Below, piece by piece: positions 3,993 to 64,000 of a stretch of DNA of 64,000 nucleotides; within the stretch, counting starts at the first letter, position 1; each line of letters begins with the position of its first letter. The stretch is from a virus (taxonomy: Duplodnaviria; Heunggongvirae; Uroviricota; Caudoviricetes): positions 1 through 64,000 of the IMG/VR virus record IMGVR_UViG_3300012347_000377, one strand, 5' to 3'. Position numbers and translations under genes: made by a program. The notes beneath the pieces are model-generated. The model searched no databases and was not told where the DNA came from. It saw only the letters and a program-made list of their open reading frames with translations.

Positions 3993-4181
3993 AGAACTAA
4001 AGAATGGATTTGTAAAGTTATCGGTCACAAGTATTCCTATAACTTTGGATGGATGCCTAATAAGTGTGAGTGTAAACGCTGTGGCATGAAATGGAAAACT
4101 ATTAAGAACCCAGAATATATTCCTGGTAAGTCTAATCCAATTGAAACTGATTTATATAGTTGGATTGAAGATAATTCCTAA
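3986..4181 (+). CDS. small Cys-containing protein (CxC...CxxC, zinc-ribbon-like)
   Basis: ORF 3960-4181 trimmed to ATG overlapping upstream stop; KCECKRCG motif. Confidence 0.35.
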
Positions 4182-4185
4182 AACA

Positions 4186-4219
4186 TTTGGAAATATCAAA
4201 AATTATTTGTATATTTACA
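4186..4219 (+). promoter_or_regulatory. phage promoter, Bacteroidota sigma-A type (-33 TTTG / -7 TAtaTTTA)
   Basis: atttggaaatatcaaaaattatttgtatatttacat; member of family recurring about 23 times. Confidence 0.55.
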
Positions 4220-4241: not shown

Positions 4242-4451
4242 ATGGCAAGAAAAGAAATTTCATTTAGAATACCGGGAATCAATTGGATAATCGGATTGGT
4301 GATAGCAATGATTGGATATACCATTCACAATAGTATATTTTGGGCAATTATGGATTATATCTTTTGGCCTTTTGCAGTAGTTAAATGGTTAATCTGTCAT
4401 GAAGTTAATTTAACAATTATAAAACAGACCTTTGATTGGTTCTTAAAATAA
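4242..4451 (+). CDS. small membrane protein
   Basis: Hydrophobic 69-aa ORF. Confidence 0.4.
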   Translation: MARKEISFRIPGINWIIGLVIAMIGYTIHNSIFWAIMDYIFWPFAVVKWLICHEVNLTIIKQTFDWFLK

Positions 4452-7766: not shown

Positions 7767-7797
7767 AATGAGTTATGAAAATAACTCATTTTTTATT
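7767..7797 (+). terminator. rho-independent terminator
   Basis: AATGAGTTAT-gaaa-ATAACTCATT followed by TTTTT. Confidence 0.6.
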
Positions 7798-7827
7798 TGG
7801 AAATATCAAAAATAAGTTGTATATTAG
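7796..7827 (+). promoter_or_regulatory. phage promoter (TTTG ... TAtaTTAG variant)
   Basis: atttggaaatatcaaaaataagttgtatattagc. Confidence 0.5.
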
Positions 7828-7842
7828 CTTTATAAAAACAAT

Positions 7843-8700
7843 ATGAATATGACACGTTTATTATTAAATCTTACTGATGTTGAAAAATCAGACATCGCAT
7901 TTAAAATTTCTTATTTTCCAGATGGCCAGCAATCCATCTCAATTGAACCAGTCGGTTCTACTCCTACAATTCGAATTCAATCACGATTAAATTCATTCAG
8001 AGATGTTGAATTAATTATTTGTGCTAACCAATCTCTTAAAGAAATGGGTGCTAAAGATATTGAATTATATGTTCCATATTTTTTAGGTTCTAGAAGTGAT
8101 AGAAAATTTGGTGAAGGTCAAACTAACTATCTTAAAAATGTTATTTCTCCAATTATTAATTCACAAGGATTTTCAAAAGTTATTACATTAGACCCACATA
8201 GTGATGTATTGGAGGCATGTTTAAACAACTACGAGAAAGAAGATAATTTCAAATTAGTAGAATATGCAATCGAACAATTGGGTAAGAAAGAAAACTTAGT
8301 TTTAGTATCACCCGATGCAGGAGCATTTAAGAAAATATTTGAAGTTGGTAAAGAATTCCAAATTGAGAACATTATTACTGCAAGTAAAGTTCGTGATATA
8401 AAAACAGGTGATATTGTGAGTACGAGTATTCCAATGTTAAGTAGAAACAATCGTTTTAAGTATGTAATCATCGATGATATTTGTGATGGTGGCAGAACGT
8501 TTATCGAACTTGCAAAGGCTATTAAAGAACAACGTGAAGGTGTTGAAATTTATTTGGTTGTAACTCATGGAATATTCTCAGCAGGATTTACTGAATTAAC
8601 TAAATACTTTAATGGTATTTTCTGCACTAATAGTTATAGAAATGTTTTAGATGATGAGTATGGAGTTAAAACCAAAACAAAACAAATAAATGTATATTAA
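7843..8700 (+). CDS. prs: ribose-phosphate pyrophosphokinase family protein (Prs-like; possibly ADP-ribose pyrophosphokinase of an NAD+ reconstitution pathway)
   Basis: VPYFLGSRSDRK, VSPDAGAF, IIDDICDGGRTF (PRPP-binding), VTHGIFS align to Prs motifs. Confidence 0.8.
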   Translation: MNMTRLLLNLTDVEKSDIAFKISYFPDGQQSISIEPVGSTPTIRIQSRLNSFRDVELIICANQSLKEMGAKDIELYVPYFLGSRSDRKFGEGQTNYLKNVISPIINSQGFSKVITLDPHSDVLEACLNNYEKEDNFKLVEYAIEQLGKKENLVLVSPDAGAFKKIFEVGKEFQIENIITASKVRDIKTGDIVSTSIPMLSRNNRFKYVIIDDICDGGRTFIELAKAIKEQREGVEIYLVVTHGIFSAGFTELTKYFNGIFCTNSYRNVLDDEYGVKTKTKQINVY

Positions 8701-8701
8701 T

Positions 8702-9127
8702 ATGGAAAACGTAGATGAATATTTAGAAACTGGTAAATCATTACGAAGATTAATCGATGAATATACCAAGTATGGTTCATTATGTATTGGATATGATTTT
8801 GATGGAACGGTCTATGATTATCACCAAACCGGTGCAAAGTATGATCAAGTAATTGATTTACTACAAGACCTTAAGGTAATGAATTGTAAATTGATTTGTT
8901 GGACAGCACAAAATGATTTAGAATTTGTTGAGAAATTTTTAACGGAAAATAGCATACCATTTGATGGGATAAATACCGATGGTATTAACTTAGGTTGGGA
9001 AAGTAGAAAACCATTCTTCTCAGCACTTTTAGATGATAGAGCTGGATTGAAACAAGTCTATGAAGACCTTCGTATGTTAGTGACTTTATTTAAAATACCT
9101 ACCGATAAATTTGGAAATCCAAAATAA
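8702..9127 (+). CDS. small HAD-like protein (DFDGT motif)
   Basis: ORF 8690-9127 trimmed to ATG after Prs stop; YDFDGTVYDYH. Confidence 0.35.
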   Translation: MENVDEYLETGKSLRRLIDEYTKYGSLCIGYDFDGTVYDYHQTGAKYDQVIDLLQDLKVMNCKLICWTAQNDLEFVEKFLTENSIPFDGINTDGINLGWESRKPFFSALLDDRAGLKQVYEDLRMLVTLFKIPTDKFGNPK

Positions 9128-9141
9128 AAGTTGTATATTAG
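9110..9141 (+). promoter_or_regulatory. phage promoter overlapping end of upstream gene
   Basis: atttggaaatccaaaataaaagttgtatattagc. Confidence 0.45.
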
Positions 9142-9171
9142 CTTTATAATTAACAGATAAACAATAAAACT

Positions 9172-10650
9172 ATGAATCCATTATTATTAACCGATGGTTA
9201 TAAGACAGGTCATCACCAACAATACCCAGAGGGAACAACGTTGGTTTATTCAAATTTCACACCCCGCAGTAACAAATATGCACCAACGGGTTGTGATAAT
9301 GTAGTATCGTTTGGTCAACAAATGATTATGAAACAAATTCACGAGGCATTTCAAAATGAATTCTTCTCTAAACCAAAAGAAGAAGTTTGTGGTGAAATGA
9401 AACGTGAGTTAAGTTTGTATTTGGGAACTGATTATGATGTTTCTCATTTTGAAGCATTACATGATTTGGGTTATTTACCAATCATTGTAAAAGGTATTGA
9501 AGAAGGAACATTAGTTCCAATGAGAGTACCAGTATTAACAATCTATAATACATTACCGGAATTTTATTGGGTTACAAATTATTTAGAAACAATCATTTCT
9601 AACTTATTATGGAAACCAATGACATCTGCTACTATTGCTCATACCTATCGTAAGGTATTAACTAAATGGCAAGAAAAAACCGATGCTGAAAAAGGTTGGT
9701 TTGTTGATTGGCAAGGACATGACTTCTCAATGAGAGGAATGGATTCAGTTGAAGCTACAATCGCTAGTGGATTAGGACACTTAACATCATTTAGTGGAAC
9801 TGATAGTTTACCTGCTATTTACGGAGCAAGAAAGTTCTATGGTGAAGAAGGATTCGTTGGAGGTTCGGTAAACGCAACCGAACATAGTGTAATGTGTGCT
9901 GGTTCTAAAGATGATGAAGTTGGAACATTCCGCAGATTGTTAGAAACATATCCAAAAGGTATTTTATCAGTTGTAAGTGATACTTGGGATTTATGGAAAG
10001 TATGCACCGAACATATCGTTACTCTTAAAGAAGAAATCTTAGCAAGAGATGGTAAGTTGGTAATCAGACCTGATAGTGGTGACCCCGTAGATATTCTTTG
10101 TGGATTAGCAAACACCGACAGAGCGGCTAAAGGAGATTCTCATGATAATGCAAACGCAGCTTATAAAGGAGTTATTGAATTACTTTGGGACGTGTTTGGT
10201 GGAACAATCAACGAACAAGGTTACAAAGTATTAGATTCTCACATTGGAGCAATTTATGGTGATAGTATCACAATTGATAGAGCTGATGAGATTTGTAGAA
10301 GATTGGAAGCAAAAGGTTTCGCATCTACAAACGTTGTATTAGGTATTGGTTCATTCACATATCAGTATAACACGAGAGATACATTTGGATTCGCTATGAA
10401 AGCAACCTATGTTGAAGTAAATGGTGAAGGTAGAGAAATCTTCAAAGACCCTATTACTGATGATGGTGTTAAGAAATCAGCCAAAGGTTTATTAAGAGTT
10501 GCGGGAGATGAAACCCATATGTTATTAGAAGACCAATGTACGTGGGAACATGAAACAACTGGTAAATTACAAACCATTTATAAGAATGGTGAGTTTTATA
10601 ATGAAACTACTTTAACTAAAATCAAAGAGAAAATTAAAACAAATAAATAA
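9172..10650 (+). CDS. nadV: nicotinamide phosphoribosyltransferase family protein (NAMPT/NadV-like)
   Basis: N-terminus MNPLLLTDGYKTGHHQQYPEGT... matches NAMPT family start (..ATDSYKVTHYKQYPP..); 492 aa. Confidence 0.8.
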   Translation: MNPLLLTDGYKTGHHQQYPEGTTLVYSNFTPRSNKYAPTGCDNVVSFGQQMIMKQIHEAFQNEFFSKPKEEVCGEMKRELSLYLGTDYDVSHFEALHDLGYLPIIVKGIEEGTLVPMRVPVLTIYNTLPEFYWVTNYLETIISNLLWKPMTSATIAHTYRKVLTKWQEKTDAEKGWFVDWQGHDFSMRGMDSVEATIASGLGHLTSFSGTDSLPAIYGARKFYGEEGFVGGSVNATEHSVMCAGSKDDEVGTFRRLLETYPKGILSVVSDTWDLWKVCTEHIVTLKEEILARDGKLVIRPDSGDPVDILCGLANTDRAAKGDSHDNANAAYKGVIELLWDVFGGTINEQGYKVLDSHIGAIYGDSITIDRADEICRRLEAKGFASTNVVLGIGSFTYQYNTRDTFGFAMKATYVEVNGEGREIFKDPITDDGVKKSAKGLLRVAGDETHMLLEDQCTWEHETTGKLQTIYKNGEFYNETTLTKIKEKIKTNK

Positions 10651-10670
10651 TAATTAAAACACAAAAAAAA

Positions 10671-12545
10671 ATGTTACAAACAATTTTAGGTTACTCATGG
10701 ATATTAATTCCAGTATTAGCATTGGTATTTTACAAATTCATTCTAAGAGTGGTATTTGGTATGGTGATTATTCCAGAAAATAAAATCGGATTAATTACTA
10801 AGAAGTTCGTTTTATTCGGTGCAAACAAATCGTTACCCGATGGAAAGATTATCGCATTGAATGGTGAGCCGGGTTACCAAGCTCAAACTCTTGCTCCTGG
10901 TTTATATTGGGGATATTGGATTTGGCAGTATTCAATTGACCAAGCTAATTTAACGGTTATTGAAAAAGGTAGAATTGGTTTATTATCCGCAAAGGATGGT
11001 GCACAATTACCAACCGGGGCAATCTTAGCTCGTCATATCGAATGTGATAATTTCCAAGATACAAAAGCATTCTTATTAAATGGTGGACAAAGAGGTAAGC
11101 AAGTAAACTATTTGAACAACGGAGTTTATCGTATTAATCCATTCTTATTTGATGTTGCAACTGCTGATATTACAAACATTGAAGATGGGCAAGTTGGTAT
11201 TATTACTGCATTAGATGGAACACCATTGGATAGTGGGAATATTGCGGGAACAACTATTGAAGGACATAATAACTTTCAGGACTTTGATAAGTTCTTAGCA
11301 AATGGTGGACAGAGAGGTTTACAAACACAAGTAGTTCAAGCCGGTAACTATTCATTTAACCCGTGGGCTATTCAAGTGGAGAAAGTAGATATGACTCAAA
11401 TTCCTATTGGACACGTTGGTGTTATTATTTCATATGTTGGTAAAGAGGGTAAAGATACTTCGGGTACAACTTTCAAACATGGTAATATCGTAGGTAAAGG
11501 TGAGAAGGGTGTTTGTGGTGTTCCATTAGACCCAGGTAAATATGCAATCAATCCTTATACTCATAAGATTGAAGTTGTTCCAACTACTAACTTAGTATTG
11601 AATTGGGCAAACGCAAGAAGTGAATCACATAATTTAGATAAAGGATTGAGCACGATTACTGTCCGTTCAAAAGATGGTTTCCCATTCAACTTAGATGTAT
11701 CACAAATTATTCACATTCCTGCAACTGAAGCACCAAAGGTAATTGCACGATTCGGTTCAATGCAGAACTTAGTTTCACAAGTATTAGAACCAACGATTGG
11801 AAACTATTTCCGTAACTCGGCACAAGATAGTGATGTAATCGCGTTCTTATCAACTCGTCAGATGAGACAAGATGCAGCGAAAGTATCCATCTCTAAAGTG
11901 TTAGATGAATATAACGTTCACGCAGTAGATACATTGATTGGTGATATTAACCCACCAGAATCATTAATGAAAACTCTTACTGATAGAAAGATTGCACAAG
12001 AAGAAGAGGTTACATTTGAAACACAACGTAAAGCACAAGACCAACGTAAAACATTGGAATCTGCTAAGGCGTTAGCGGATATGCAAGGACAGATGGTAGC
12101 AGCACAACAATCGGTAGAAATTTCCGAAAGAGAAGCACAGGCATCGGTTAAACGTTCCGAAGGTGAGGCTAAAGCAATTGAGTTAAAAGCAACTGCACAA
12201 GCAAACGCGAAGAAAGTAACTGCTTCTGCAGATGCAGCACAAATCGAATTAGTAGGTGCCGCGGAAGCAACGAAGATTGAAGCAATTGGTAAATCAACCG
12301 CTGAGGCGTATAAGTTACAAGTTGATGCTATGGGTGGTGATAATTTCGCTAAGTTTAAAATTACCGAAGAGATTGGTAAGAACGGAATTAAAATTATTCC
12401 AGAAATCTTAATCAATGGTAATGGTAATGGTTCACCGATTGATGGATTATTAGGAATGGAATTGTTAAAACAAATTCAGGACAAAAAAGATATTCAATCA
12501 ATTGTAGAAACAACAACTGAACCTACATCCAAAAAAAGTAAATAA
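10671..12545 (+). CDS. flotillin/SPFH (band 7) family membrane protein, YqiK-like
   Basis: N-terminal TM helix, repeated NGGQRG...INPF segments, C-terminal Ala/Glu-rich flotillin-type region. Confidence 0.55.
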   Translation: MLQTILGYSWILIPVLALVFYKFILRVVFGMVIIPENKIGLITKKFVLFGANKSLPDGKIIALNGEPGYQAQTLAPGLYWGYWIWQYSIDQANLTVIEKGRIGLLSAKDGAQLPTGAILARHIECDNFQDTKAFLLNGGQRGKQVNYLNNGVYRINPFLFDVATADITNIEDGQVGIITALDGTPLDSGNIAGTTIEGHNNFQDFDKFLANGGQRGLQTQVVQAGNYSFNPWAIQVEKVDMTQIPIGHVGVIISYVGKEGKDTSGTTFKHGNIVGKGEKGVCGVPLDPGKYAINPYTHKIEVVPTTNLVLNWANARSESHNLDKGLSTITVRSKDGFPFNLDVSQIIHIPATEAPKVIARFGSMQNLVSQVLEPTIGNYFRNSAQDSDVIAFLSTRQMRQDAAKVSISKVLDEYNVHAVDTLIGDINPPESLMKTLTDRKIAQEEEVTFETQRKAQDQRKTLESAKALADMQGQMVAAQQSVEISEREAQASVKRSEGEAKAIELKATAQANAKKVTASADAAQIELVGAAEATKIEAIGKSTAEAYKLQVDAMGGDNFAKFKITEEIGKNGIKIIPEILINGNGNGSPIDGLLGMELLKQIQDKKDIQSIVETTTEPTSKKSK

Positions 12546-12548
12546 AAT

Positions 12549-13025
12549 ATGGCATTAGTATTAAAGCCAGGTATGGTAGGGACGGGAGCAATCTCGTCCC
12601 CATCTGTATTTTTAGCAGGTTCTATTGAAATGGGAGTTGCTGAAAATTGGCAAGAAAGAATTGAAAGAGAATTTTCAGATGAAGAACTAACATTCTTTAA
12701 TCCTCGCAGAGATGATTGGGATAGTAGTTGGTCACAAACTGGAGAACAATTTAACACACAAGTAAATTGGGAATTAAATGCATTAGATGATTCAGATATT
12801 ATCTTTATGTATTTTTCACCCGAAACTAAATCACCAATTTCTTTATTAGAATTGGGATTATATGCAGATTCACAAAAAATGATTGTAGTTTGTCCAGATG
12901 GATTTTGGAGAAAGGGTAATGTGAGTGTGGTGTGTACAAGAAATAATATACCAATGTTTAATACAATCGAAGAGGGTATATTTGCATTAAGAACATCTGT
13001 TAGAAAAAATCAAAAATTATATTAG
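12549..13025 (+). CDS. nucleoside 2-deoxyribosyltransferase-like Rossmann protein
   Basis: VFLAGS..., ...SLLELGLY... pattern reminiscent of the NDT-like family; weak. Confidence 0.3.
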   Translation: MALVLKPGMVGTGAISSPSVFLAGSIEMGVAENWQERIEREFSDEELTFFNPRRDDWDSSWSQTGEQFNTQVNWELNALDDSDIIFMYFSPETKSPISLLELGLYADSQKMIVVCPDGFWRKGNVSVVCTRNNIPMFNTIEEGIFALRTSVRKNQKLY

Positions 13026-13053
13026 GATATATCAAAAATATTTTGTATATTTG
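13021..13053 (+). promoter_or_regulatory. phage promoter (attagg variant of -33, -7 TATATTTG)
   Basis: attaggatatatcaaaaatattttgtatatttg. Confidence 0.45.
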
Positions 13054-13079
13054 TAATATAAATTAATAAGATATAAAAG

Positions 13080-13526
13080 ATGAATGATAAAATTGTAGGA
13101 TTTACGTGTAGCACATTTGATTTACTTCATACTGGTCATATTTTGATGTTAGAAGAAGCTAAATCTCAATGTGATTATTTAATTTGTGGATTACAGATAG
13201 ACCCAACGGTAGATAGACCTCAAAAGAATTCACCGGTTCAATCGTATTACGAACGTTTTATTCAATTGAGTGCAGTTAAATATGTGGATGCAATTATACC
13301 ATATACGACCGAAGAAGAATTGATGACAATATTACAAACAAACGATATTGATATTAGAATATTGGGTGATGAGTATGAAAGAAAACTATTCACTGGTTCT
13401 AATTTAGATATGGATTATTACTTTAATAAACGAACTCACAATTATAGCACAACCGAATTACGAAAACGAGTTGCATTAAAGGAATCTCAATTAGGAGGAA
13501 GTGAAACTGATAATACTAAACAATAA
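13080..13526 (+). CDS. cytidylyltransferase-like nucleotidyltransferase (HxGH); candidate NMN adenylyltransferase
   Basis: GFTCSTFDLLHTGHILMLEEAK is the (T/H)xGH nucleotidyltransferase signature. Confidence 0.5.
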   Translation: MNDKIVGFTCSTFDLLHTGHILMLEEAKSQCDYLICGLQIDPTVDRPQKNSPVQSYYERFIQLSAVKYVDAIIPYTTEEELMTILQTNDIDIRILGDEYERKLFTGSNLDMDYYFNKRTHNYSTTELRKRVALKESQLGGSETDNTKQ

Positions 13527-13532
13527 TAAGAA

Positions 13533-14672
13533 ATGGAAAACTTAAATTCAGTTTGCTACGTAGCAACGATTAATGAAATCAAACCAATCGAAGGTGCTGA
13601 CAACATCGAACTTGTAATAGCAGGTGGATGGAATGCAATCACAAAGAAAGGTGAATTTAAAGTAGGTGATACAACCATCATCGCAACTACTGATGCAGTT
13701 ATACCAGAATCACTTTCCGAAGAAATGGGAGTTACAAACTATCTTCGTAAAGGTAATAGAGTTAGGACTGTGAAGTTAAGAGGTGTATATTCAGAATGTT
13801 TGATTATACCAAAGCAGTATCTAATGGGTAATGTGACAATGGGTGATTATGATTTGGGTGAAGGTAGTGATTGTATGGAGTTCTTAGGGATTACTAAATT
13901 CGAACCACCAGTTAAGATGGTTCAATTAGCAAGTGGTAAAAAGATTCGTTATCAAGATAATCCAAACTTTCATGTCTATTATAAGTTTCCTAACTTAAAG
14001 AATGTACCTGATATGTTTACTAACAATGATTTAGTAGAAATCACTCGTAAGATACATGGAACTAATGCTCGATATGGTATTGTTAAAAAGAACAAATTAT
14101 CATTATTTGATAAGCTTAAGAAATTCTTTGGATTTGCCGATAAGTGGATTGATTACGAATTCGTAGTTGGTTCTCATAACGTAGAGAAAGGTTCAGACTC
14201 CAATGGGTTCTATGATACTAATGTTTGGTATGAAATTGAAAAGAAATACAACATCAAACAAAAATTATGGGATTACGTTAAAAATGAAAACGTTTATATT
14301 GGTGATGGTATTACCTTATATGGTGAGATTTACGGAGCGGGAATCCAAAAGGGATATGAGTATGGGTTAAAAGATATTGAGTTCGTAGGATTCGATGTAA
14401 AGGAGTGTGGTGAGTATTTAAGTACCTACAATGCTTGGAGGGTAATTAAAAATGAATTAGAATTACCTTATGTTGAAATTTTACACTTCGGTGATTGGTC
14501 ACAAGAAATACAAGATTCTTTTGTATTTAATAACTTTATCGAAGGAACAAAAGTTCCACATGAAGGAATTGTAATCAAATACCACACAGGTGAAAGACCA
14601 AAGATTGCTAAGGTAATCAACCCTGATTATTTAATCTTTGCAGAAAAACACAATGTGGGGGATTCCCATTAA
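13533..14672 (+). CDS. ATP-dependent RNA ligase, Rnl2-like, with extra N-terminal domain
   Basis: Motif I KIHGTN, motif IV EGIVIK, motif V IAKVIN in canonical order. Confidence 0.65.
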   Translation: MENLNSVCYVATINEIKPIEGADNIELVIAGGWNAITKKGEFKVGDTTIIATTDAVIPESLSEEMGVTNYLRKGNRVRTVKLRGVYSECLIIPKQYLMGNVTMGDYDLGEGSDCMEFLGITKFEPPVKMVQLASGKKIRYQDNPNFHVYYKFPNLKNVPDMFTNNDLVEITRKIHGTNARYGIVKKNKLSLFDKLKKFFGFADKWIDYEFVVGSHNVEKGSDSNGFYDTNVWYEIEKKYNIKQKLWDYVKNENVYIGDGITLYGEIYGAGIQKGYEYGLKDIEFVGFDVKECGEYLSTYNAWRVIKNELELPYVEILHFGDWSQEIQDSFVFNNFIEGTKVPHEGIVIKYHTGERPKIAKVINPDYLIFAEKHNVGDSH

Positions 14673-18629: not shown

Positions 18630-18655
18630 TTGTTAATATATCTTACACACATCAT

Positions 18656-18688
18656 AACCCATTGAATTTCAATGGGTTATTTTTTTAT
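18656..18688 (+). terminator. rho-independent terminator (AACCCATTGAA...TTCAATGGGTT family)
   Basis: Perfect hairpin plus T-run; near-identical hairpins at 33476 and 40875. Confidence 0.65.
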
Positions 18689-18696
18689 CTAAAATA

Positions 18697-18728
18697 TTTG
18701 GAAATATCAATTTTTATTCGTATCTTTG
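18697..18728 (+). promoter_or_regulatory. phage promoter (-33 TTTG / -7 TATCTTTG)
   Basis: atttggaaatatcaatttttattcgtatctttg. Confidence 0.55.
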
Positions 18729-18747
18729 ACTTATAATAATAAAAGAA

Positions 18748-18963
18748 ATGGAAGATAATACTAAAAAATACAATCCGTATCATAAGGAAGCAATTAGACT
18801 CTCTGAAGAATCTAAACTAACATTAACAATAGATGCTTCTATTATAACGAAGTATTCAAACGATATGGAATTGGGTGGTATTATTAGAGAAATGTATATC
18901 AAAAAATGTAAATCAGCAGATGAACAAATTGACCATATACAAACTTTAATGAAAAATATTTAA
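18748..18963 (+). CDS. hypothetical protein (71 aa)
   Basis: ORF. Confidence 0.4.
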   Translation: MEDNTKKYNPYHKEAIRLSEESKLTLTIDASIITKYSNDMELGGIIREMYIKKCKSADEQIDHIQTLMKNI

Positions 18964-19029
18964 TTATTTTTTACGTTTCATATATTTTTATATATGTATA
19001 TAAACAAAAAGAAAGTTCTTTAACATAAT

Positions 19030-19404
19030 GGGGATGCCCGGTATTGACAGATATGAAGTGTTGATATAATTGCAAGCAGGATTAGATGGAAATCCTTAAT
19101 CACCTATCGAACAATAAACGCAGAAGAAAAATCTTCATTCACCTTTGCAGATGCTATGGCATTTGTAGGTGCTGATTTAGCTGTAGCAGCATAATCATCC
19201 TCGCACACATCGTGAGCTAAAAAAGAATGTGAACTCAGGTGGAAAAGTGATTGAACCCGAAATCGAATCACTCATTGTTTATCGGTTGCCGATGGTGAAG
19301 AACCAACCGAATATTTTGTTAGTTAAGAAAAACTAACTAAGCTTGTGAATGAGGTTTATTAAACCATATTTTGGACGAGGGTTCGACTCCCTCCATCTCC
19401 ACCA
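19030..19404 (+). ncRNA. ssrA: tmRNA (SsrA)-like RNA, phage-encoded
   Basis: 5' GGGGATG pairs with 3' CATCTCC-ACCA (G3:U70); 3' end GGACGAGGGTTCGACTCCCTC...CCACCA is tmRNA-like; internal frame aataaacGCAGAAGAA...GCTGTAGCAGCATAA ends in ...ADLAVAA stop. Confidence 0.6.
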
Positions 19405-19423
19405 AAAAAAAATTACAAATATA

Positions 19424-19455
19424 TTTGGAATTGTAAAAATAATTTCGTATCTTTG
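19424..19455 (+). promoter_or_regulatory. phage promoter
   Basis: atttggaattgtaaaaataatttcgtatctttg. Confidence 0.55.
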
Positions 19456-19570
19456 TATTGTTATTAAAATAAAGGTTGAAGCCAATAGTAATAAAACCGA
19501 CTATGTGACCCCGTAAGGAAGAAAGCCGGATACCATTATTTTAATAATAAAAAAAATAAATGAAAAAAGA

Positions 19571-19602
19571 TTTGGAAATGTGAAAATATTTTCGTATCTT
19601 TA
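19571..19602 (+). promoter_or_regulatory. phage promoter
   Basis: tttggaaatgtgaaaatattttcgtatcttta. Confidence 0.5.
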
Positions 19603-19786
19603 CAAAGTAATCAGAATTCGTAAAAACGTACCTGAAGTAAGAGTGACGAAGTTTACTATACCAAATGGTTGATTCTGATTACAAAATCGTTCTTTGAGAA
19701 ATATAATAATTGTGGGAGAGTAGACTAATTGTAAATAAGACGCCCGTAAAATGTACAACATTTCAATTATTATTAAACATTATATC

Positions 19787-19857
19787 GCGAGGGGGAGGTA
19801 AGGTATTTCATTGGTCTCATAAGCCAACCTAAGTGGGTTCGATTCCCACCCTACGCA
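19787..19857 (+). tRNA. tRNA-like gene, anticodon CAT, degenerate D-arm
   Basis: Acceptor GCGAGGG/CCTACGC (1 mismatch), anticodon arm TTGGT-CTCATAA-GCCAA, T-arm GTGGG-TTCGATT-CCCAC. Confidence 0.3.
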
Positions 19858-19940
19858 ACTAAGAGTAAGTAAGAGAACCGGTTATCTAAACCTTTGAGTG
19901 AAGAGCCAAACGTCATACTTACTTACTCAAAAAAAAAACT

Positions 19941-19972
19941 TTAAAAAAGATTTGGAATTGTGAAATTAATTT
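19941..19972 (+). promoter_or_regulatory. phage promoter
   Basis: tttggaattgtgaaattaatttcgtatcttta. Confidence 0.5.
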
Positions 19973-20057
19973 CGTATCTTTACAAAGTAATAAGAAACTA
20001 ATCAACCAAACAACACAAAATTAAAAAGTATTGTTCAATTTAAAAAAAAAATAAATT

Positions 20058-20270
20058 ATGGTAAAGTTTCATAAAGTTCTTTTAATTGCTGGATGTGTGA
20101 CATCATTATTAAGTGGTGTGATAAGTGTAGTTCAAAATAAGTTTGATACATATGCATTTATATCAGCATTGTTATTCTTTAATTTATATCTTAGTTTAAT
20201 TACTAATACGAAATTAGAAAATGCAATTAATGATCACGTTAAATCAGTTAGAAAAATAATTAAAAAATAA
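20058..20270 (+). CDS. small membrane protein (70 aa)
   Basis: Two hydrophobic helices. Confidence 0.4.
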   Translation: MVKFHKVLLIAGCVTSLLSGVISVVQNKFDTYAFISALLFFNLYLSLITNTKLENAINDHVKSVRKIIKK

Positions 20271-20281
20271 TTGTAAAATTA

Positions 20282-20313
20282 TTTGGAAATACGAAAAAAG
20301 TTTCGTATCTTTG
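20282..20313 (+). promoter_or_regulatory. phage promoter
   Basis: tttggaaatacgaaaaaagtttcgtatctttg. Confidence 0.5.
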
Positions 20314-20384
20314 TAAAGTTGGTTCTGAACTCATAGGCAATGAAAGATACTCGGTATCAGAAACAAAAAAAAGTTTAAAAAATA

Positions 20385-20416
20385 TTTGGAATTGTAAAAT
20401 TAATTTCGTATCTTTG
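20385..20416 (+). promoter_or_regulatory. phage promoter driving ORF-free region
   Basis: tttggaattgtaaaattaatttcgtatctttg. Confidence 0.55.
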
Positions 20417-20424
20417 ATAAACAA

Positions 20425-21550
20425 AACGTTCTTTAAATTATTGAAAACATTGCACATAGTATTCTCGTAATACATAGTGCATATCCGCCGCATATGGTGG
20501 TTAAATAAACTTGGAAACAAGGATAAAGTGAATACATTGGTTAATGTGTTTGCGGTTTCAAACCGAAAGGAATGGAACTCGAGTATGCAAGTGGAATATC
20601 ATTAGACCTGATTAGTGAGGGTAACTCCGTAGTGAAATGGTTTGATGACTGGGCTATAGTAGAAGTTCAGTTGAAGTGGGAACACTAATAAGAATAATCC
20701 ATAGAGTTAATGCAAGAAGTGAGAACTTAATCTCTTCTCATCATTGCGTGATTCAATATTAAAGGTGACTTAAAACCGAAAGGTATGATAAAGTACGAGT
20801 GGTGTCGTTATTATCCTTACCTACCTCTCACCAAAGAGTGGGTATTGAAGTAATCTTAAAATATGGCGTTAGAGATAACGCATCGAGTAGTATAGTATTC
20901 TGTTCTTCAAAATGGAACGGAGCTAGTGGTAATCCACTACTTGAATTCTTCTACAAACCAAAACTCAATTTGCTATTTGAATGCAAACTCAAAAACAAAT
21001 AAGAGAAAGAGGTTACCAGTTACAATCGAAAGGTGTGTACTTAGTAGGGAGATGTTCCCTGCCACAAACACTCTCAAGGTGAATGTGATTCTTTCAAAAA
21101 ACTTCTAGCATTGCGAGATGTTAATCGGGTCGGCAGATTCGAAGAGGCGGAGTAAAAAGAGAGTAGGTTGTGACTTAAAGATTGGTAAATCTATAATTAC
21201 CCACATTGAATTGGTACTTCTCAAAAGGAAGTGGAAATTAAGGCAACCCATAACCCTTATAAAGCTGGTTCACAATATGGAGTATTCTCATCCTTATACA
21301 AGATGTAATAGTGTAATGGTAGCACGTTCCAATGGTGACTTTGGAAAGCAAGGTTCGATTCCTTAAACATCTCTTCGTAGTGGTTTACGGCAGATAGGTT
21401 AGGTGTATCTCTCTAACAACTGAAAGTCCACTTAAATAAAAATGACAAATAGTATGAAGATATGGTTTTCAGTAGGGGATTTTCGCCTTAAACAATCTCA
21501 ACCAATACGAATTAGTGTTGATGGTAAACAATGGATGTAGCTAGTCCTTT
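20425..21550 (+). ncRNA. candidate large structured non-coding RNA (about 1.1 kb, ORF-free)
   Basis: Bounded by consensus promoter and terminator; no ORF >82 aa in any frame; visibly G+C-richer than coding DNA; recurring ccgaaagg/tcgaaagg GNRA-like hairpins (20562, 20778, 21037). Confidence 0.35.
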
Positions 21551-24763: not shown

Positions 24764-24795
24764 TTTGGATATATAAAATAATTTTCGTATCTTTG
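24764..24795 (+). promoter_or_regulatory. phage promoter
   Basis: tttggatatataaaataattttcgtatctttg. Confidence 0.55.
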
Positions 24796-24810
24796 TAATG
24801 TATTAAAAAA

Positions 24811-24929
24811 TAAAGAGGTAGTGAAGCTGTAATGATGAGCTTTGGGGTAAAGGTTGGAAAAAGGGTTAATAGTATGACTTAAAGCCTACACTCATCATCA
24901 GTAACCCTGAAAGACCCGAAACCTCTTTA
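24811..24929 (+). ncRNA. structured RNA element (nested perfect helices) in 5' leader of tRNA-Met
   Basis: Outer 9-bp helix TAAAGAGGT/ACCTCTTTA; inner CTG-ta-ATGATGAG/CTCATCAT-CAG helix. Confidence 0.35.
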
Positions 24930-24933
24930 ATTT

Positions 24934-25281: not shown

Positions 25282-25313
25282 TTAGGAAATGTAAAATATT
25301 TTTCGTATCTTTA
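25282..25313 (+). promoter_or_regulatory. phage promoter (attagg variant)
   Basis: attaggaaatgtaaaatatttttcgtatcttta. Confidence 0.45.
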
Positions 25314-25349
25314 TAATGTTCTTTGAAACGATGGTTAGTAAAGTAATAT

Positions 25350-25500: not shown

Positions 25501-25627
25501 AGTCTTGTGGCGAAATGGTAAACGCAAATGTCACTCGGAGAAGAAGGAACTAAGCCAACATCTCCTTGCAAGTGATAGGGTATTCTAAAGAGTAAATCCC
25601 GTACAGGTTCGAATCCTGTCATGACTA
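25501..25627 (+). tRNA. tRNA-like gene with roughly 55-nt insertion (paralogue of 726-838)
   Basis: AGTCTTG/CATGACT acceptor, D-arm GGCGAAATGGTAAACGC, ACAGG-TTCGAAT-CCTGT; internal hairpins CACTCGGAGA...TCTCCTTGCAAGTG and AGGG...CCC. Confidence 0.4.
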
Positions 25628-26584: not shown

Positions 26585-27013
26585 ATGCAAAATCTTTTTA
26601 TTAGTATTATTATGTTGTTGTCACCAATTGAATTGACATCGACAAATGTAGAAATTGAAGAAAGTAGTTTAGAAGAAATTGGAGTAGTAACGGTCACAAC
26701 ATATACATCAACAATTGGAGAATGTGATAGTTCACCCAACGTAACTGCGAGTGGATTTAAAATCAGTAAGAGGAATCCAAAAAAACACAGAATCATTGCC
26801 GTAAGTAGAGATTTAAAACGTAAATTGAAATTCGGTCAGAAAGTAAAAGTAACTGGTGCTGGAAAGTATAATGGTGAATATGTAGTAAGGGATGTAATGA
26901 ATAAAAGATATAGAAGACATATCGATATTCTAATCAATCCTAAAGATAAACAAACTAAATTTTCAAAAGTGAAAATTTATAAAATAAAAGATAAAAAAGA
27001 TTTGGAATTGTAA
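26585..27013 (+). CDS. 3D-domain (MltA/YocH-like) protein, secreted
   Basis: Signal peptide; TASGFKI...IIAVSRDL...KVKVTGAG...RHIDIL resembles 3D domain. Confidence 0.4.
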   Translation: MQNLFISIIMLLSPIELTSTNVEIEESSLEEIGVVTVTTYTSTIGECDSSPNVTASGFKISKRNPKKHRIIAVSRDLKRKLKFGQKVKVTGAGKYNGEYVVRDVMNKRYRRHIDILINPKDKQTKFSKVKIYKIKDKKDLEL

Positions 27014-27032
27014 AATAAATTTCGTATCTTTG
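27001..27032 (+). promoter_or_regulatory. phage promoter overlapping end of upstream gene
   Basis: tttggaattgtaaaataaatttcgtatctttg. Confidence 0.5.
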
Positions 27033-27094: not shown

Positions 27095-27535
27095 ATGAAA
27101 GTAAGTGATGAAAAGATAATTGAAATATGTAATAACTCAATATCAATGGCTAGAGCAGCAGTTGATTTAGGAATACATTTTAATACTCTAAAAAGTAGAG
27201 CAATTAAATTGGGGTGTTATAAAATAAACCCATCTGGTAAGGGGATAAAAAAACCTAAAAGAGATGGATTTGATAAGATAGCTCTTTCTAAAATACTGAA
27301 TGGTGATGAACCACAATATCAAACTAATAAATTACGAATTAGATTGATTAAAGAAGGTATTAAAGAAGAAAAATGTGAAGTATGTGGTATAACCGAATGG
27401 AATGGTAAATCAGTTTCATTTGAATTGGATCATATAGATGGTAATAGGACAAATCACAAATTAATTAATTTAAGAATAATTTGTCCAAATTGTCATTCAC
27501 AAACTGAAACATATAGAGCAAGAAATATTAAGTAA
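27095..27535 (+). CDS. HNH homing endonuclease
   Basis: ELDHIDGNRTNH...ICPNCH (HNH with zinc ligands). Confidence 0.7.
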   Translation: MKVSDEKIIEICNNSISMARAAVDLGIHFNTLKSRAIKLGCYKINPSGKGIKKPKRDGFDKIALSKILNGDEPQYQTNKLRIRLIKEGIKEEKCEVCGITEWNGKSVSFELDHIDGNRTNHKLINLRIICPNCHSQTETYRARNIK

Positions 27536-27891: not shown

Positions 27892-27921
27892 CAACTATCG
27901 TTCTTTGATAAAACTAAAATT

Positions 27922-30271: not shown

Positions 30272-30515
30272 CAACCTTATTCTCATGTTGGGCTCAGGTG
30301 AGTGAAAAGCGTACGAGGTTACTGAGTCCTTTATTGTAGTGTGACGAAATTGGCAGACGTGCCCTCCTGTCTCGGGGGTGTGGAATAAAGAAATAGATTG
30401 ACAATATGGGGTAGACCACCAGCATGCATGCGAACGATGTTGTCAATTGAATCTCCATTTGAGTGGTTCGAATCCCTTCACTACAGCATTATTAATTTAA
30501 TATCCAGTATCGATA

Positions 30516-33472: not shown

Positions 33473-33475
33473 TAT

Positions 33476-33509
33476 ATAACCCATTGAAATTCAATGGGTT
33501 TATTTTTTA
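33476..33509 (+). terminator. rho-independent terminator (conserved hairpin family)
   Basis: AACCCATTGAAATTCAATGGGTT plus T-run. Confidence 0.65.
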
Positions 33510-33530
33510 TTAAAAATAATTGAAAAAACA

Positions 33531-33562
33531 TTTGGAAAATTGAAAAAAAGGTTGTATATTAG
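33531..33562 (+). promoter_or_regulatory. phage promoter
   Basis: tttggaaaattgaaaaaaaggttgtatattag. Confidence 0.5.
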
Positions 33563-33598
33563 CTAAGTAATAAGAGATAAACAATAAAACTTAAACAT

Positions 33599-33889
33599 AT
33601 GAAAACTCAATTTGAAATTTGGTTAGAAAAGGTTAATAGTGAATTTGAAGGTGTGGTATATAGTTGGTCACCTTTAACTGCTAAGAAAGGTTCTAAGTTT
33701 ATAAAAATACAAAACGGAAGTACGGTTTGGGGATTCGTTTCAATGTATGATGGTGAGTTTCAAGGATTTCCTGTTAAGAAAGGTGATTTAATGAAACCAG
33801 CAAGTTGGAGAGCCCCAGCCAAACATAGTAGAGGAAATATATTCGATGGAACTGCTCGTTATAAATGGACAGGACCAGAATACTTATAA
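33599..33889 (+). CDS. hypothetical protein (96 aa)
   Basis: ORF. Confidence 0.45.
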   Translation: MKTQFEIWLEKVNSEFEGVVYSWSPLTAKKGSKFIKIQNGSTVWGFVSMYDGEFQGFPVKKGDLMKPASWRAPAKHSRGNIFDGTARYKWTGPEYL

Positions 33890-35100: not shown

Positions 35101-35132
35101 TTTGGATATGTAAAATATTATTCGTATATTTG
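35101..35132 (+). promoter_or_regulatory. phage promoter
   Basis: tttggatatgtaaaatattattcgtatatttg. Confidence 0.5.
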
Positions 35133-35160: not shown

Positions 35161-35343
35161 ATGACTTGGAAATATAGAGAAATGGGTTCTCGTGATAAAA
35201 AAACTGGTAAGTTAAAATATTACGATGTGACCGTTACGGATTGGAAAATTACCAATTGCACATGTGAGGCTAGAAGTTTTCGTAGATTCTCTCCTTGCAA
35301 ACATATGGTTTCAATAAATAAAAAATTAGGACATACTTTATAA
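35161..35343 (+). CDS. SWIM-type zinc-finger small protein
   Basis: CTCEARSFRRFSPCKH fits CxC...CxH. Confidence 0.4.
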   Translation: MTWKYREMGSRDKKTGKLKYYDVTVTDWKITNCTCEARSFRRFSPCKHMVSINKKLGHTL

Positions 35344-39747: not shown

Positions 39748-40876
39748 TATACAATTCTGGTATCACCCTATAATGGGTGGTACGGGATTGCAATCATTAT
39801 TAGAATCACTTTATCCAAATTCATTTAAGTTATATACCGATGATTCTGATATAGATTCATCAATTCAAAATATAATTACATTTTTTTGGGAAACTCATTC
39901 TGCTATTAACTTAGAAGCCAAAACCAACAAACCCGAATTCTTTGAGTTGGTTTCTAAATTAAATAATAAAGGATTTTATTTTTTAGCAGATTATACAACC
40001 GAAGCAAATAATAATGTTGATTTAGATAGAGTTGAGTTTTTATCTAAATTATTAGATTGTGGTGTTGGATTGACTAGAAACTTTGCACTTACTACAAATG
40101 ATTCAACTCATTTAAATCTAGTACAACATCAATATGGAATTCACACCATAAACAAAATTCATTTCCCACATTTTTTAATTAGCACTCCATTGGAAATGGG
40201 TAAGTATATTATTGATGTATCCGATAGAGAAACTATTACACCAACCAAAGATTTTCTTTGTTTGAATCGAAGAATGCAATCTCATAAATTCAATATGGTT
40301 AAACATATTTGGGAAAATGACGAGTTGGAAAATACACATCTAAGTTGGGTTTGTAATAAGATGGATATTGAATCAATTAAGGATGAACCAATCATTTCAG
40401 CGTTAGGAATCGATTTAAATAATTTTCAATCAATACAATTGGAAGATGATATAATGTATGGTAGTGAATTAGATACTGCCGATGAATATCTTTACACTAT
40501 AAATCCAGAATGGTATTATAAAAGTAAAGTAAATATAATAATCGAAACTAACGCATATAATTCACCAACTCACATAACCGAAAAGACATTAAAATCTATA
40601 TTTTTAGAAACTCCATTTGTAATATTTGCAACGGATTTACATTTAGATGTATTACAGAAATATGGATTTGTAGTATTTGATGAATTTACAAAATATCAAC
40701 CATCCAATGAAAAATCAGTATTGGATTCTGCTAGAGAACTTGCAAAAATATATGATTATGATTCCATTCGTAATGTATGTAGATTTAATCGAAACGTATT
40801 ATTGGATACTCATAATCAACGGAGAATATTAGAAACGTATTTCATATCATCTATAAAAACTTTAAATAATACATAA
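39734..40876 (+). CDS. hypothetical protein (380 aa)
   Basis: ORF. Confidence 0.5.
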   Translation: MQKNNIQFWYHPIMGGTGLQSLLESLYPNSFKLYTDDSDIDSSIQNIITFFWETHSAINLEAKTNKPEFFELVSKLNNKGFYFLADYTTEANNNVDLDRVEFLSKLLDCGVGLTRNFALTTNDSTHLNLVQHQYGIHTINKIHFPHFLISTPLEMGKYIIDVSDRETITPTKDFLCLNRRMQSHKFNMVKHIWENDELENTHLSWVCNKMDIESIKDEPIISALGIDLNNFQSIQLEDDIMYGSELDTADEYLYTINPEWYYKSKVNIIIETNAYNSPTHITEKTLKSIFLETPFVIFATDLHLDVLQKYGFVVFDEFTKYQPSNEKSVLDSARELAKIYDYDSIRNVCRFNRNVLLDTHNQRRILETYFISSIKTLNNT

Positions 40877-40906
40877 CTCATTGATTTCCAATGGGTTATT
40901 TTTTTA
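40875..40906 (+). terminator. rho-independent terminator (conserved hairpin family)
   Basis: AACTCATTGATTTCCAATGGGTT plus T-run. Confidence 0.6.
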
Positions 40907-40928
40907 TCAAAAATAAATGATAAAATAT

Positions 40929-40960
40929 TTGGATATGTCAAAAAAATGTTGTAGATTAGC
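40929..40960 (+). promoter_or_regulatory. phage promoter
   Basis: tttggatatgtcaaaaaaatgttgtagattag. Confidence 0.45.
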
Positions 40961-40984
40961 TTTATAACATTAAGAGATAAACAT

Positions 40985-41136: not shown

Positions 41137-41168
41137 TTTGGAAATATCAAACTATTTTCGTATATTTA
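41137..41168 (+). promoter_or_regulatory. phage promoter
   Basis: tttggaaatatcaaactattttcgtatattta. Confidence 0.5.
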
Positions 41169-41212
41169 CTAAGTAATAAGAGATAAACAATTAAACTTTA
41201 AAATATAAAATT

Positions 41213-41479
41213 ATGAATTATTCAGAATTATCAAAAATGTCAGTTGAGGAGTTGCGTGACATCAATCAGATGGTAGTTGCACTTATCAAATCAAAACGTA
41301 ACATGGAATCGTTACAAAACAAAATTGGGTTACGAGTAGGTATGTTGGTGAAAGTTAATCACCCTAAATTACAAGGTAGAGAGTTAGAGGTTACTAAAAT
41401 TAACCGAACTAAGGCTAACCTGCGAGTGGTAGGTGGATTTGCTTCTTATAATGTACCAGTTTCTTTAATCCAATACTAA
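41213..41479 (+). CDS. hypothetical protein (88 aa)
   Basis: ORF. Confidence 0.45.
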   Translation: MNYSELSKMSVEELRDINQMVVALIKSKRNMESLQNKIGLRVGMLVKVNHPKLQGRELEVTKINRTKANLRVVGGFASYNVPVSLIQY

Positions 41480-42800: not shown

Positions 42801-42832
42801 TTTGGAAAATACGAAAAAAAGTTGTATATTTG
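42801..42832 (+). promoter_or_regulatory. phage promoter
   Basis: tttggaaaatacgaaaaaaagttgtatatttg. Confidence 0.5.
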
Positions 42833-50479: not shown

Positions 50480-50483
50480 TAAT

Positions 50484-54413: not shown

Positions 54414-54445
54414 TTTGGTATTATCATAAATTTTTAGTATATTTG
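54414..54445 (+). promoter_or_regulatory. phage promoter
   Basis: tttggtattatcataaatttttagtatatttg. Confidence 0.45.
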
Positions 54446-55894: not shown

Positions 55895-55926
55895 TTTGGT
55901 ATTTTGAAATATTATTCGTATATTAG
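55895..55926 (+). promoter_or_regulatory. phage promoter
   Basis: tttggtattttgaaatattattcgtatattag. Confidence 0.5.
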
Positions 55927-61677: not shown

Positions 61678-61709
61678 TTTGGAAATATCATAAATAATTT
61701 GTATATTTG
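61678..61709 (+). promoter_or_regulatory. phage promoter
   Basis: tttggaaatatcataaataatttgtatatttg. Confidence 0.5.
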
Positions 61710-63947: not shown

Positions 63948-63979
63948 TTTGGAATTGTAAAATAATTTTCGTATCTTTA
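63948..63979 (+). promoter_or_regulatory. phage promoter at window end
   Basis: tttggaattgtaaaataattttcgtatcttta. Confidence 0.5.
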
Positions 63980-64000
63980 CATTATGAAAAAAGAACTATT

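Follow-up and report, generated by a model that had tools for sequence, protein, structure and literature searches.

Promoters of the primary sigma factor of Bacteroidota, sigma-A, have been described in Bacteroides fragilis and Flavobacterium johnsoniae; in the latter, a -33 element TTTG is paired with a -7 element T-12 A-11 N N T-8 T-7 T-6 G-5, G is virtually absent at -10/-9 (the TAHHTTTG refinement) and transcription starts 4-5 nt beyond the -7 element (PMC6847099). T4-type phages carry many near-identical, strong early promoters for the host sigma factor that are conserved beyond the host consensus; in the elements known as PeSLs some copies are fused to a stem-loop terminator, and indels between close relatives are bounded by such cassettes (PMC2839356, PMC4122927). 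Long untranslated units, i.e., ribosomal RNA (rRNA) operons with their boxB/boxA/boxC leaders, the lambda nut regions and CRISPR arrays, have a boxA motif in the transcribed leader (PMC7665894, PMC7862264), and the GOLLD RNA (RF02032) has been described in phages, with a conserved 3' domain and a transfer RNA (tRNA) directly after it (PMC12286853, PMC5737381). Here, we analysed the first 64,000 nucleotides of the IMG/VR virus record IMGVR_UViG_3300012347_000377 (the window), in which a 32-nt motif recurs ahead of protein genes and in an island of RNA genes that includes a GOLLD RNA. Taken as a whole, the copies are best explained as jumbo-phage promoters that are most likely recognized by the RNA polymerase of a Bacteroidota host with its primary sigma factor, sigma-A, and we hold this explanation with good confidence.

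With a position weight matrix built from the sites listed in an earlier note on this sequence, we detected exactly 24 copies of the motif TTTGG-N-TAtcTTTG, all on the + strand. They score 26.7-44.2 bits, and the next best match in the 128 kb of two-strand sequence reaches at most 13.2 bits. The earlier note had spoken of about 23 sites; its list itself holds 24, all of which exist, and most of its coordinates stand, with 19941 corrected to 19951, 10 and 2725 to 8 and 2723 (both TTAG variants), 13021 to 13022 and 40929 to 40928. It was also right that all copies lie on the + strand ahead of gene starts or RNA genes, at a distance of 0-75 nt from the downstream start codon or RNA 5' end in every case, and that six of them fall within 18697-20416. 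The pattern TTTG-N20-TAnnTTTG occurs 12 times in the window, compared with 0.88 +/- 0.90 in shuffled sequences; all 12 matches are on the + strand and none on the - strand, and other spacers between 15 and 25 give only 0-2 matches on the + strand. A repeat search of the window returned the same family independently, as the largest repeat families.

The spacer measures 20 nt in every copy, and the upstream element reads TTTG in 20 of the 24 sites and TTAG in the other four. T-12, A-11, T-8 and T-7 are invariant. Half of the sites (12/24) match TAnnTTTG exactly and the other half differ at one base, having A at -6 in five sites (TATATTAG or TAGATTAG) or A at -5 in seven (TATCTTTA or TATATTTA). 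G is absent at -10/-9 in 21 of the 24 sites, the exceptions being those at 8 and 2723 (TATGTTTG) and at 40928 (TAGATTAG). Two sub-classes can be told apart: TATCTTT(G/A), with 10 copies of which nine lie in the RNA island (18.7-27 kb) and one at the end of the window, and a second one (TATATTTG, TATATTAG, TATGTTTG or TAGATTAG), whose 14 copies all precede protein genes.

In the numbering used for F. johnsoniae, the phage copies place TTTG at -36..-33 and, after the 20-nt spacer, TAnnTTTG at -12..-5, in exact agreement with the geometry published for sigma-A promoters of Bacteroidota. Elements and register (TTTG ending at -33, TA starting at -12) are those of the B. fragilis and F. johnsoniae promoters, and the avoidance of G at -10/-9 and the AT-rich flanks are likewise shared (PMC6847099). 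E. coli-type -35/-10 sites are not enriched (54 vs 47.1 +/- 6.8 at 17.5-28.5 kb). The assignment to the Bacteroidota -33 TTTG / -7 TAnnTTTG type rather than that of E. coli, already made in the earlier note, is supported. The full anatomy comprises A-rich, UP-element-like blocks at about -52..-49 and about -44..-41, TTTGG at -36..-32, an A-tract at -24..-21 and (TT)CG-TAtcTTTG at -16..-5, with the predicted start at a G or A about 5 nt further on; recognition by host sigma-A would place initiation there. For a comparative test, 47 distinct promoters located upstream of the small RNA element sD (see below) in divergent phages were aligned on the -7 element alone. TTTG re-emerged at exactly N20 (-36..-33), with T at 89-96% and G at -33 at 94%, and the A-tract at -24..-21 and the A-rich blocks at -44..-41 and -52..-49 were also kept; the rest varies among phages.

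We compared these promoters with those of host rRNA operons by scanning metagenomes for Bacteroidota-type 16S 5' ends, which yielded 99 distinct leaders, each extending 420 nt or more upstream. The motif GTTCTTTRA, a boxA-like element discussed below, is present on the sense strand in 51 of these 99 leaders (vs 3 antisense), and TAnnTTTG follows the same pattern, occurring no more than 150 nt upstream of it in 44 of the 51 (vs 3 antisense). The 44 host rRNA promoters have the layout of the phage copies, i.e., A-rich, T-rich, A-rich, TTTGG, an A-tract at -24..-19 and TAyCTTTG, and their majority base at -9 is C, as in the phage TATCTTT class. We derived a matrix from these 44 promoters, leaving out the six core columns of the -7 element. 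It scored 12.4 for phage sites of the TATCTTT class and 7.9 for the other phage sites, compared with a background of -16.9 +/- 7.7; 17 of 23 phage sites exceed the 99.9th percentile, and the maximum in the window is a phage site. Judged by sequence, the phage promoter is of the same design as the host rRNA promoters. The phage copies are far more uniform than host promoters, and their spacer is fixed at 20 nt vs 19-21 nt in host rRNA promoters. The core reading of the earlier note, by which these are promoters of the Bacteroidota type that point to the host phylum and would mark out transcription units, held under every test run.

Translation signals point to the same phylum. Among 96 + strand open reading frames (ORFs), GGAG or GAGG occurs at -20..-4 in 3% (controls 2% and 6%), G is depleted at the Shine-Dalgarno position, and A accounts for 70% of the bases at -3 and for about 60-69% at -11..-13; a Shine-Dalgarno-free, A-rich start region is a signature described for Bacteroidota (PMC6847099). 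A search of 185,579 GTDB species genomes returned one relative, a 112-kb contig in a metagenome-assembled genome (MAG) of Sediminibacterium (Chitinophagaceae, Bacteroidota), at 69% amino-acid identity. Shine-Dalgarno-free starts with A at -3 and the 16S-leader promoter matrix independently support a Bacteroidota host, the phylum named in the earlier note, and the MAG relative agrees as a third line, although it is a single and weak data point.

The window has 31% G+C and essentially all of its ORFs on the + strand. Its RNA genes are a transfer-messenger RNA (tmRNA), 26 tRNA genes (ARAGORN) and the GOLLD RNA (Rfam), and its proteins include a helicase, an RNA ligase and enzymes of NAD salvage and nucleotide metabolism. 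Among isolate phages, nucleotide searches revealed no close relative, only a tRNA-Asn match and distant matches to metabolic genes, and 151 relatives of the RNA ligase were detected in IMG/VR, the longest of their contigs measuring 287 kb; the window therefore represents a member of an uncultured freshwater jumbo-phage group. The closest relative compared, L007, has a ligase with 85% amino-acid identity and the same RNA cluster.

In the RNA island, each promoter cassette would head one unit: orf71 with the tmRNA; sA; sB with a tRNA-like gene and sC; orf70; sD; and GOLLD with a tRNA array. The earlier note had all six clustered promoters driving small RNAs. This fits three of them; two others precede small ORFs, and the last would drive GOLLD (about 875 nt), which that note had missed, together with the tRNA array. 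Copy 7 (18697-18728; TATCTTTG class; 94% identical in L007) precedes the 71-codon orf71 (18748-18963) and probably reaches the tmRNA (19030-19404, + strand; ARAGORN; Rfam 102.2 bits; tag AEEKSSFTFADAMAFVGADLAVAA) by read-through. The 66-nt spacer between the two contains a degenerate -7-like element, TATATTTT, and the boxA-like GTTCTTTAA (19015-19023, + strand), 6 nt upstream of the tmRNA. The tmRNA claimed for the cluster is thereby confirmed as a gene, but no canonical promoter copy lies directly upstream of it, as orf71 and the -7-only element intervene; in the related loci L008 and L023 a canonical promoter stands directly ahead of the tmRNA. The tag is unusually long, and its reading frame differs among the window, L007, L008 and L023. 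Copy 8 (19424-19455; 44.2 bits; 100% identical in L007) precedes sA. Copy 9 (19571-19602) precedes, in this order, sB, a boxA-like motif (GTTCTTTGA, 19689-19697, + strand) in the leader of a tRNA-like gene, a conserved leader, this gene itself and sC. The gene (19787-19857, + strand; 100% identical in L007) has a CAT anticodon and an aberrant D-arm and is called by both ARAGORN and Rfam (33.8 bits), in agreement with the CAT-anticodon tRNA-like RNA of the earlier note. Copy 10 (19951-19982) lies ahead of the 70-codon orf70 (20058-20270) and copy 11 (20282-20313) ahead of sD. A search of PHROGs gave no match for orf71, orf70 and four further ORFs.

Copy 12 (20385-20416; 97% identical in L007) stands before a boxA-like motif, GOLLD and the tRNA array. 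We place GOLLD at 20421-21294 on the + strand, its 5' end being predicted from the promoter; the 3' domain (20883-21294) matches RF02032 over model positions 1-416 with 260.5 bits, against a gathering threshold of 150. The 5' part, which begins right behind the promoter at 20385, is kept in L007, L008, L023, L032, L064 and L085. The conserved 3' domain is matched over its full length, a tRNA stands directly behind it and the setting is a phage, all in agreement with published descriptions of GOLLD (PMC12286853, PMC5737381), to which the window adds a likely promoter, a boxA-like leader (GTTCTTTAA, 20428-20436, + strand, at about +8 of the transcript) and two companion small RNAs. The tRNA-like gene at 21301-21373 (+ strand), 7 nt past GOLLD and with an 8-nt anticodon loop, is the first of an array that reaches 24275, and no further promoter copy occurs before 24764. 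This gene scores only 30 bits and is given the anticodon 'gtga' by ARAGORN; a normal tRNA occupies its place in L008.

Three more copies serve the remainder of the island. Copy 13 (24764-24795) precedes a conserved leader and tRNA-Met (24934); the leader, at 24796-24933, contains GAGGnAGTGAAGCTGTAAT, has a similar sequence ahead of a tRNA in L008 (about 4075-4200) and may be another structured RNA. Copy 14 (25282-25313), a TTAG variant, precedes a boxA-like motif (25318-25326, + strand), which lies 24 nt ahead of tRNA-His (25351). Copy 15 (27001-27032) is followed by an ORF (27095-27535) and by tRNA-Leu, tRNA-Ala and tRNA-Glu, after which a further boxA-like motif lies at 27900 (+ strand). Two tRNA-like genes, at 727-839 and 25501-25627, have good acceptor and T arms, the T arms being 97% identical to one another, and both are interrupted in the anticodon/variable region by an insertion of 40-55 nt; they are called by Rfam (37-38 bits) and not by ARAGORN. 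T-arm-like sequences (GGTTCGAATCC) at 380-408 and 30462-30491, outside the called tRNAs, may be more such elements.

Four small structured elements, sA to sD, accompany these genes on the + strand, and Rfam 15 at a permissive E-value gave no match for any of them. The 5' and 3' ends of sA (19460-19548; fold z -2.0) pair in a 13-bp helix around a core GGTTGAAGCCA ... TAATAAAACCGA ... AAAGCCGGAYAC. Homologues of sA in 28 loci (e.g., L023 2922-2982) conserve the single-stranded blocks and vary in the hairpins, and they lie behind their own promoter or directly after tRNA(CAU). sB (19607-19682; fold z -3.9) is the hairpin that the earlier note had described as closed by 10 bp of TAATCAGAAT/ATTCTGATTA; it is real, with a closing helix of 12 bp (19607-19618 with 19671-19682). 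Compared with L007, it represents 69 extra nucleotides inserted at transcript position +7, and homologues with a different closing helix are found in L247, L293 and L215. The hairpin RNA sC (19863-19928; fold z -3.3) has a homologue in L007 alone, where it has its own extra promoter copy. The A-tracts reported after the hairpins turned out to be something else, namely the upstream A-rich element of the next promoter, which is present in the same way at most mRNA promoters and host rRNA promoters.

The fourth element, sD (20318-20366), may be a small RNA or a leader element. Its core is an invariant 22 nt at 20333-20354 (ATAGGCAATGAAAGATACTCGG; ATAGGYRATGAAAGATACTCGG), found exactly in 92 IMG/VR contigs (e.g., L007 7964-8012) that represent 69 distinct contexts, in nearly all of which a promoter lies about 8 nt ahead of the helix. 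An 8-bp helix (20321-20328 with 20357-20364), which was specified by hand and then tested by pair counts, is paired in 75.4% of cells vs 60.8 +/- 2.1 after shuffling (0/500) and 27-50% when slid, and two-sided changes occur in all eight pairs. RNAalifold predicted no structure on the ungapped sD alignment, and sD alone folds no better than its shuffles (z -0.5). Hammerhead and box C/D identities were considered for the core and dropped because the required core bases are not conserved. A host origin of the sA and sD cores is not supported, since both are absent from host rRNA contigs. On comparative grounds, sA and sD are conserved phage RNA motifs without an Rfam family.

Whether sA, sB, sC and sD act as independent small RNAs can be questioned, and the alternative, that they form 5' leaders or insulators within longer read-through transcripts, is a strong contender to which we give a little less than an even chance. 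It would fit with the finding that a U-tract follows none of the four, with the position of sA directly behind a tRNA in many phages, and with the contexts of sD, in which a boxA-like motif directly follows within 60 nt downstream in 31 of 69 and GOLLD is the next RNA in 28 of 69, without a new promoter. However, a separate full promoter copy stands before each of the RNAs, both in L007 and in the window, and with the predicted starts the closing helices begin at +2..+4 in sA, sB and sD. The conserved cores and covarying helices speak for functional RNA and are compatible with acting alone or not. As independent small RNAs, they can be likened to a feature of phage T4, by setting alone. Two stable RNAs, C and D, are encoded in the T4 tRNA gene cluster; both are small and structured, and their function is not known. 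The RNAs described here likewise lie among phage tRNA genes and differ in that most stand behind a promoter of their own.

In the window we counted 11 occurrences of GTTCTTTRA, where 2.6 +/- 1.5 would be expected. Five + strand copies fall within the RNA island, and none was seen in the mRNA 5' untranslated regions (5'UTRs) inspected after the protein-gene promoters of the window. In the related loci (n=81), 31 of 120 + strand copies are followed by a tRNA or tmRNA gene within 60 nt. The hits in the 16S leaders comprise 49 GTTCTTTGA and 5 GTTCTTTAA, and 45 hits fall at -90..-180 from the 16S match. Flanks that were not part of the selection agree between host and phage, being A-rich just upstream and having TG at +14/+15. 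Comparable elements have been published: boxA GTTCTTTAAAA gives about 10-fold more CRISPR precursor RNA in Legionella (PMC7862264), boxA TGTTCTTTAACA is found in Taylorella rRNA spacers (PMC2666751), and boxA motifs have been reported in CRISPR leaders of Bacteroidetes (PMC7665894). A Bacteroidota rRNA boxA is given neither in the supplements of the CRISPR-boxA study nor in PMC10250234, and in the literature searched we found no report of a boxA-like motif at phage tmRNA, GOLLD or tRNA genes. Because the same motif is present in the Bacteroidota 16S leaders, GTTCTTTRA is likely a host-type boxA placed in long untranslated phage units. Its core is identical in phage and 16S leaders, and its position in the transcribed leader is that of boxA in rRNA leaders, lambda nut and CRISPR leaders. 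The boxB-then-boxA order of rRNA leaders is mirrored by the sD hairpin just upstream of the boxA-like motif in many relatives; unlike rRNA boxB, the sD hairpin has an invariant 22-nt core, and in contrast to lambda no N-like protein is known. A generic promoter-plus-boxA pattern was also tried in IMG/VR and proved too loose, with a recognizable RNA gene after 18 of 112 distinct sequences among the matches listed.

Under this interpretation, GTTCTTTRA just past the start of long untranslated units would act as boxA and recruit host Nus factors, and the Nus-loaded polymerase would escape Rho-dependent termination, as in rRNA operons. We tentatively propose that the stable-RNA island (GOLLD, tmRNA and tRNA arrays) is run in this way from copies of the rRNA control region with boxA/Nus termination resistance, and that sD is a phage-specific partner, perhaps a nut/boxB-like protein site or a processing element; as a whole, we regard this model as possible rather than probable. 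A competing explanation, which we consider unlikely although not negligible, takes GTTCTTTRA for a processing signal or leader element in phage and host leaders alike, e.g., a site at which an RNase releases the 5' ends of tmRNA, tRNA and GOLLD. The phage motif does lie only 3-24 nt from mature tRNA and tmRNA 5' ends, and its position relative to the promoter ranges between about +1 and +80. However, all nine core positions (9/9) match boxA sequences that are experimentally active or annotated (PMC7862264, PMC2666751), the motif in host leaders is 90-180 nt from 16S and away from the mature end, and a single motif heads each multi-gene untranslated unit rather than every tRNA.

Outside the island, the promoter copies, again all on the + strand, stand before protein genes. 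Copy 1 (8-39; TTAG variant, -7 element TATGTTTG; 26.7 bits) precedes a 9-codon mini-ORF and an ORF at 79-273, copy 2 (2723-2754; TTAG variant) an ORF at 2759-2953 whose ATG lies 4 nt past the -7 element, and copy 3 (4186-4217; 39.1 bits) an ORF at 4242-4451. Copies 4 and 5 (7796-7827 and 9110-9141; both TATATTAG), the former located after a hairpin and T-run, precede the genes of ribose-phosphate pyrophosphokinase (7843-8700) and nicotinamide phosphoribosyltransferase (9172-10650), and copy 6 (13022-13053; TTAG variant) an ORF (13080-13526) and the RNA ligase (13533-14672). An NAD-salvage block, which also encodes a cytidylyltransferase-like protein, and the adjoining RNA ligase occupy 7843-14672, just upstream of the RNA island. 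Further downstream, copy 16 (33531-33562; TATATTAG) follows the terminator repeat at 33475 and precedes an ORF at 33599-33889; copy 17 (35101-35132) precedes an ORF at 35161-35343; copy 18 (40928-40959; TAGATTAG) follows the terminator repeat at 40872 and precedes a small ORF starting at 40985; copy 19 (41137-41168), which has its 5'UTR in common with copy 16, precedes an ORF at 41213-41479; and copy 20 (42801-42832) an ORF at 42868-43353. Copy 21 (54414-54445) lies ahead of an ORF with its ATG at about 54514, and copy 22 (55895-55926; TATATTAG) ahead of an endonuclease gene (55953-56852). Copy 23 (61678-61709) has the ATG of its ORF (61715-61999) 5 nt past the -7 element, and copy 24 (63948-63979; TATCTTTA) has an ATG at 63984, 4 nt past the -7 element, of a gene that extends beyond the window. 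The first ATG at 2759, 61715 and 63984 coincides with the predicted start, 4-5 nt past the -7 element, which suggests that these mRNAs are leaderless. Several other mRNA promoters are followed by a common 5'UTR, CTAAGTAATAAGAGATAAACAATAAAAC or a variant (33563-33590, 41169-41196, 9142-9170 and 40960-40984), which may be a translation or stability element. Three paralogous ORFs are arranged in tandem (48355-48996, 48996-49721 and 49721-50479), with segments that are 72-86% identical (within 48986-50480).

An intrinsic terminator (18654-18687, + strand; 12-bp stem and T7) lies directly upstream of copy 7. Its hairpin ATAACCCATTGAAnTTCAATGGGTTAT with the T-run occurs three times (18653-18707, 33475-33529 and 40872-40926), each time fused to a promoter copy, and the three composites are 82-84% identical over 55 nt. 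Terminators stand directly upstream of promoter copies only at 18654, 33475, 40872 and about 7770; the other 20 copies lack one. Bases 1-65 are an exact duplicate of 2716-2780. Promoter identity between the window and L007 is 82-100%, with a mean of about 93%, and that of the two small ORFs is 77-83%; all three indels fall at cassette edges: an 820-bp ORF after the tmRNA (L007), the 69-nt sB (window only) and a whole 54-nt promoter cassette (L007 only). As the indels between these close relatives are bounded by cassettes, the repeats appear to be recombination joints too. The many uniform promoters, the fusion of some to a terminator and the cassette-bounded indels recall the T4 early promoters and PeSLs (PMC2839356, PMC4122927), from which the present family differs by its Bacteroidota rather than sigma-70 promoter type, by having the stem-loop in about 4 of 24 copies, and by island cassettes that flank RNA genes rather than small ORFs.

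Several observations weigh against host sigma-A promoters as the explanation of the whole. Half of the sites (12/24) deviate by one base, with A for T at -6 or A for G at -5, where the F. johnsoniae positions are nearly invariant, and TTAG replaces TTTG at -33 in four. Positions -4..+2 are C-rich in the host rRNA promoters, with C in 91% at -4 and in 95% at position 0, and the phage copies lack this stretch; it may be a regulatory discriminator avoided by the phage. These data come from the metagenomic Bacteroidota rRNA leaders, loci L299-L418. The CF319a signature is exact in 38 of the 68 loci that reach far enough into 16S (46/68 at up to one mismatch). The MAG link consists of one contig, and the binning of phage contigs is weak as host evidence. 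The boxA identity proposed for the 16S-leader motif is drawn from position and from similarity to published boxA, and the window has no U-tract after the small hairpin RNAs that would account for their 3' ends. Moreover, sigma contacts alone would not demand the degree of conservation seen in the motif, so that an additional phage factor is possible, and since the 64 kb represent only part of a genome of about 250 kb, a phage sigma factor or polymerase could lie outside the window.

The last two points lead to an alternative that we consider improbable, in which the motif serves a sigma factor or RNA polymerase encoded by the phage itself, as a promoter of a middle or late class, and merely resembles the host consensus. 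Jumbo phages often encode their own transcription machinery. With a quarter of the genome visible, and with a motif of about 30 bits that is conserved outside the core elements (GGAAWT, and TTCG before the -7 element), such a factor would be conceivable. However, TTTGG, the A-tract at -24..-20, the upstream A-rich blocks and C at -9 are all shared with host rRNA promoters, the best-kept positions across divergent phages are exactly TTTG and TAnnTTTG, and no sigma or polymerase domain was found among the 20 window ORFs scanned. The genes served (NAD salvage, nucleotide metabolism, tRNAs) are typically early ones, and transcription from these promoters would probably be early as well. That the copies are primarily recombination or mobility repeats (PeSL-like joints or miniature mobile elements) with incidental promoter activity is the least probable explanation: the cassette-bounded indels (3/3, one of them a whole cassette), the duplicated bases 1-65 and the three similar composites would suit it, but the copies are strictly on one strand at a fixed distance to gene starts, their invariant positions are the sigma-A consensus and not the entire repeat, host rRNA promoters share the layout, and a recombination role is compatible with promoter function, as in T4-type PeSLs (PMC2839356).

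As host sigma-A promoters, the family itself is of an expected kind, i.e., a phage with many uniform copies of a strong promoter for the host sigma factor. Less expected are the cassettes of the RNA island, which seem to mimic the host rRNA control region including boxA, and the undescribed, putative small RNAs near GOLLD. For an uncultured freshwater jumbo-phage group, the motif provides a host call (Bacteroidota) from sequence only and a map of transcription units. To our knowledge, the structure of GOLLD is known, whereas its function and expression are not. A probable promoter and 5' end can now be named for a GOLLD RNA and, if the proposed control by rRNA-type promoter and boxA is true, no signals for the transcription and regulation of this RNA would have been defined before them. 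The elements sA and sD would add two widespread RNA motifs that travel with GOLLD and tRNAs. Overall, the arrangement suggests that phage non-coding RNA genes may borrow the rRNA antitermination signal of their host.

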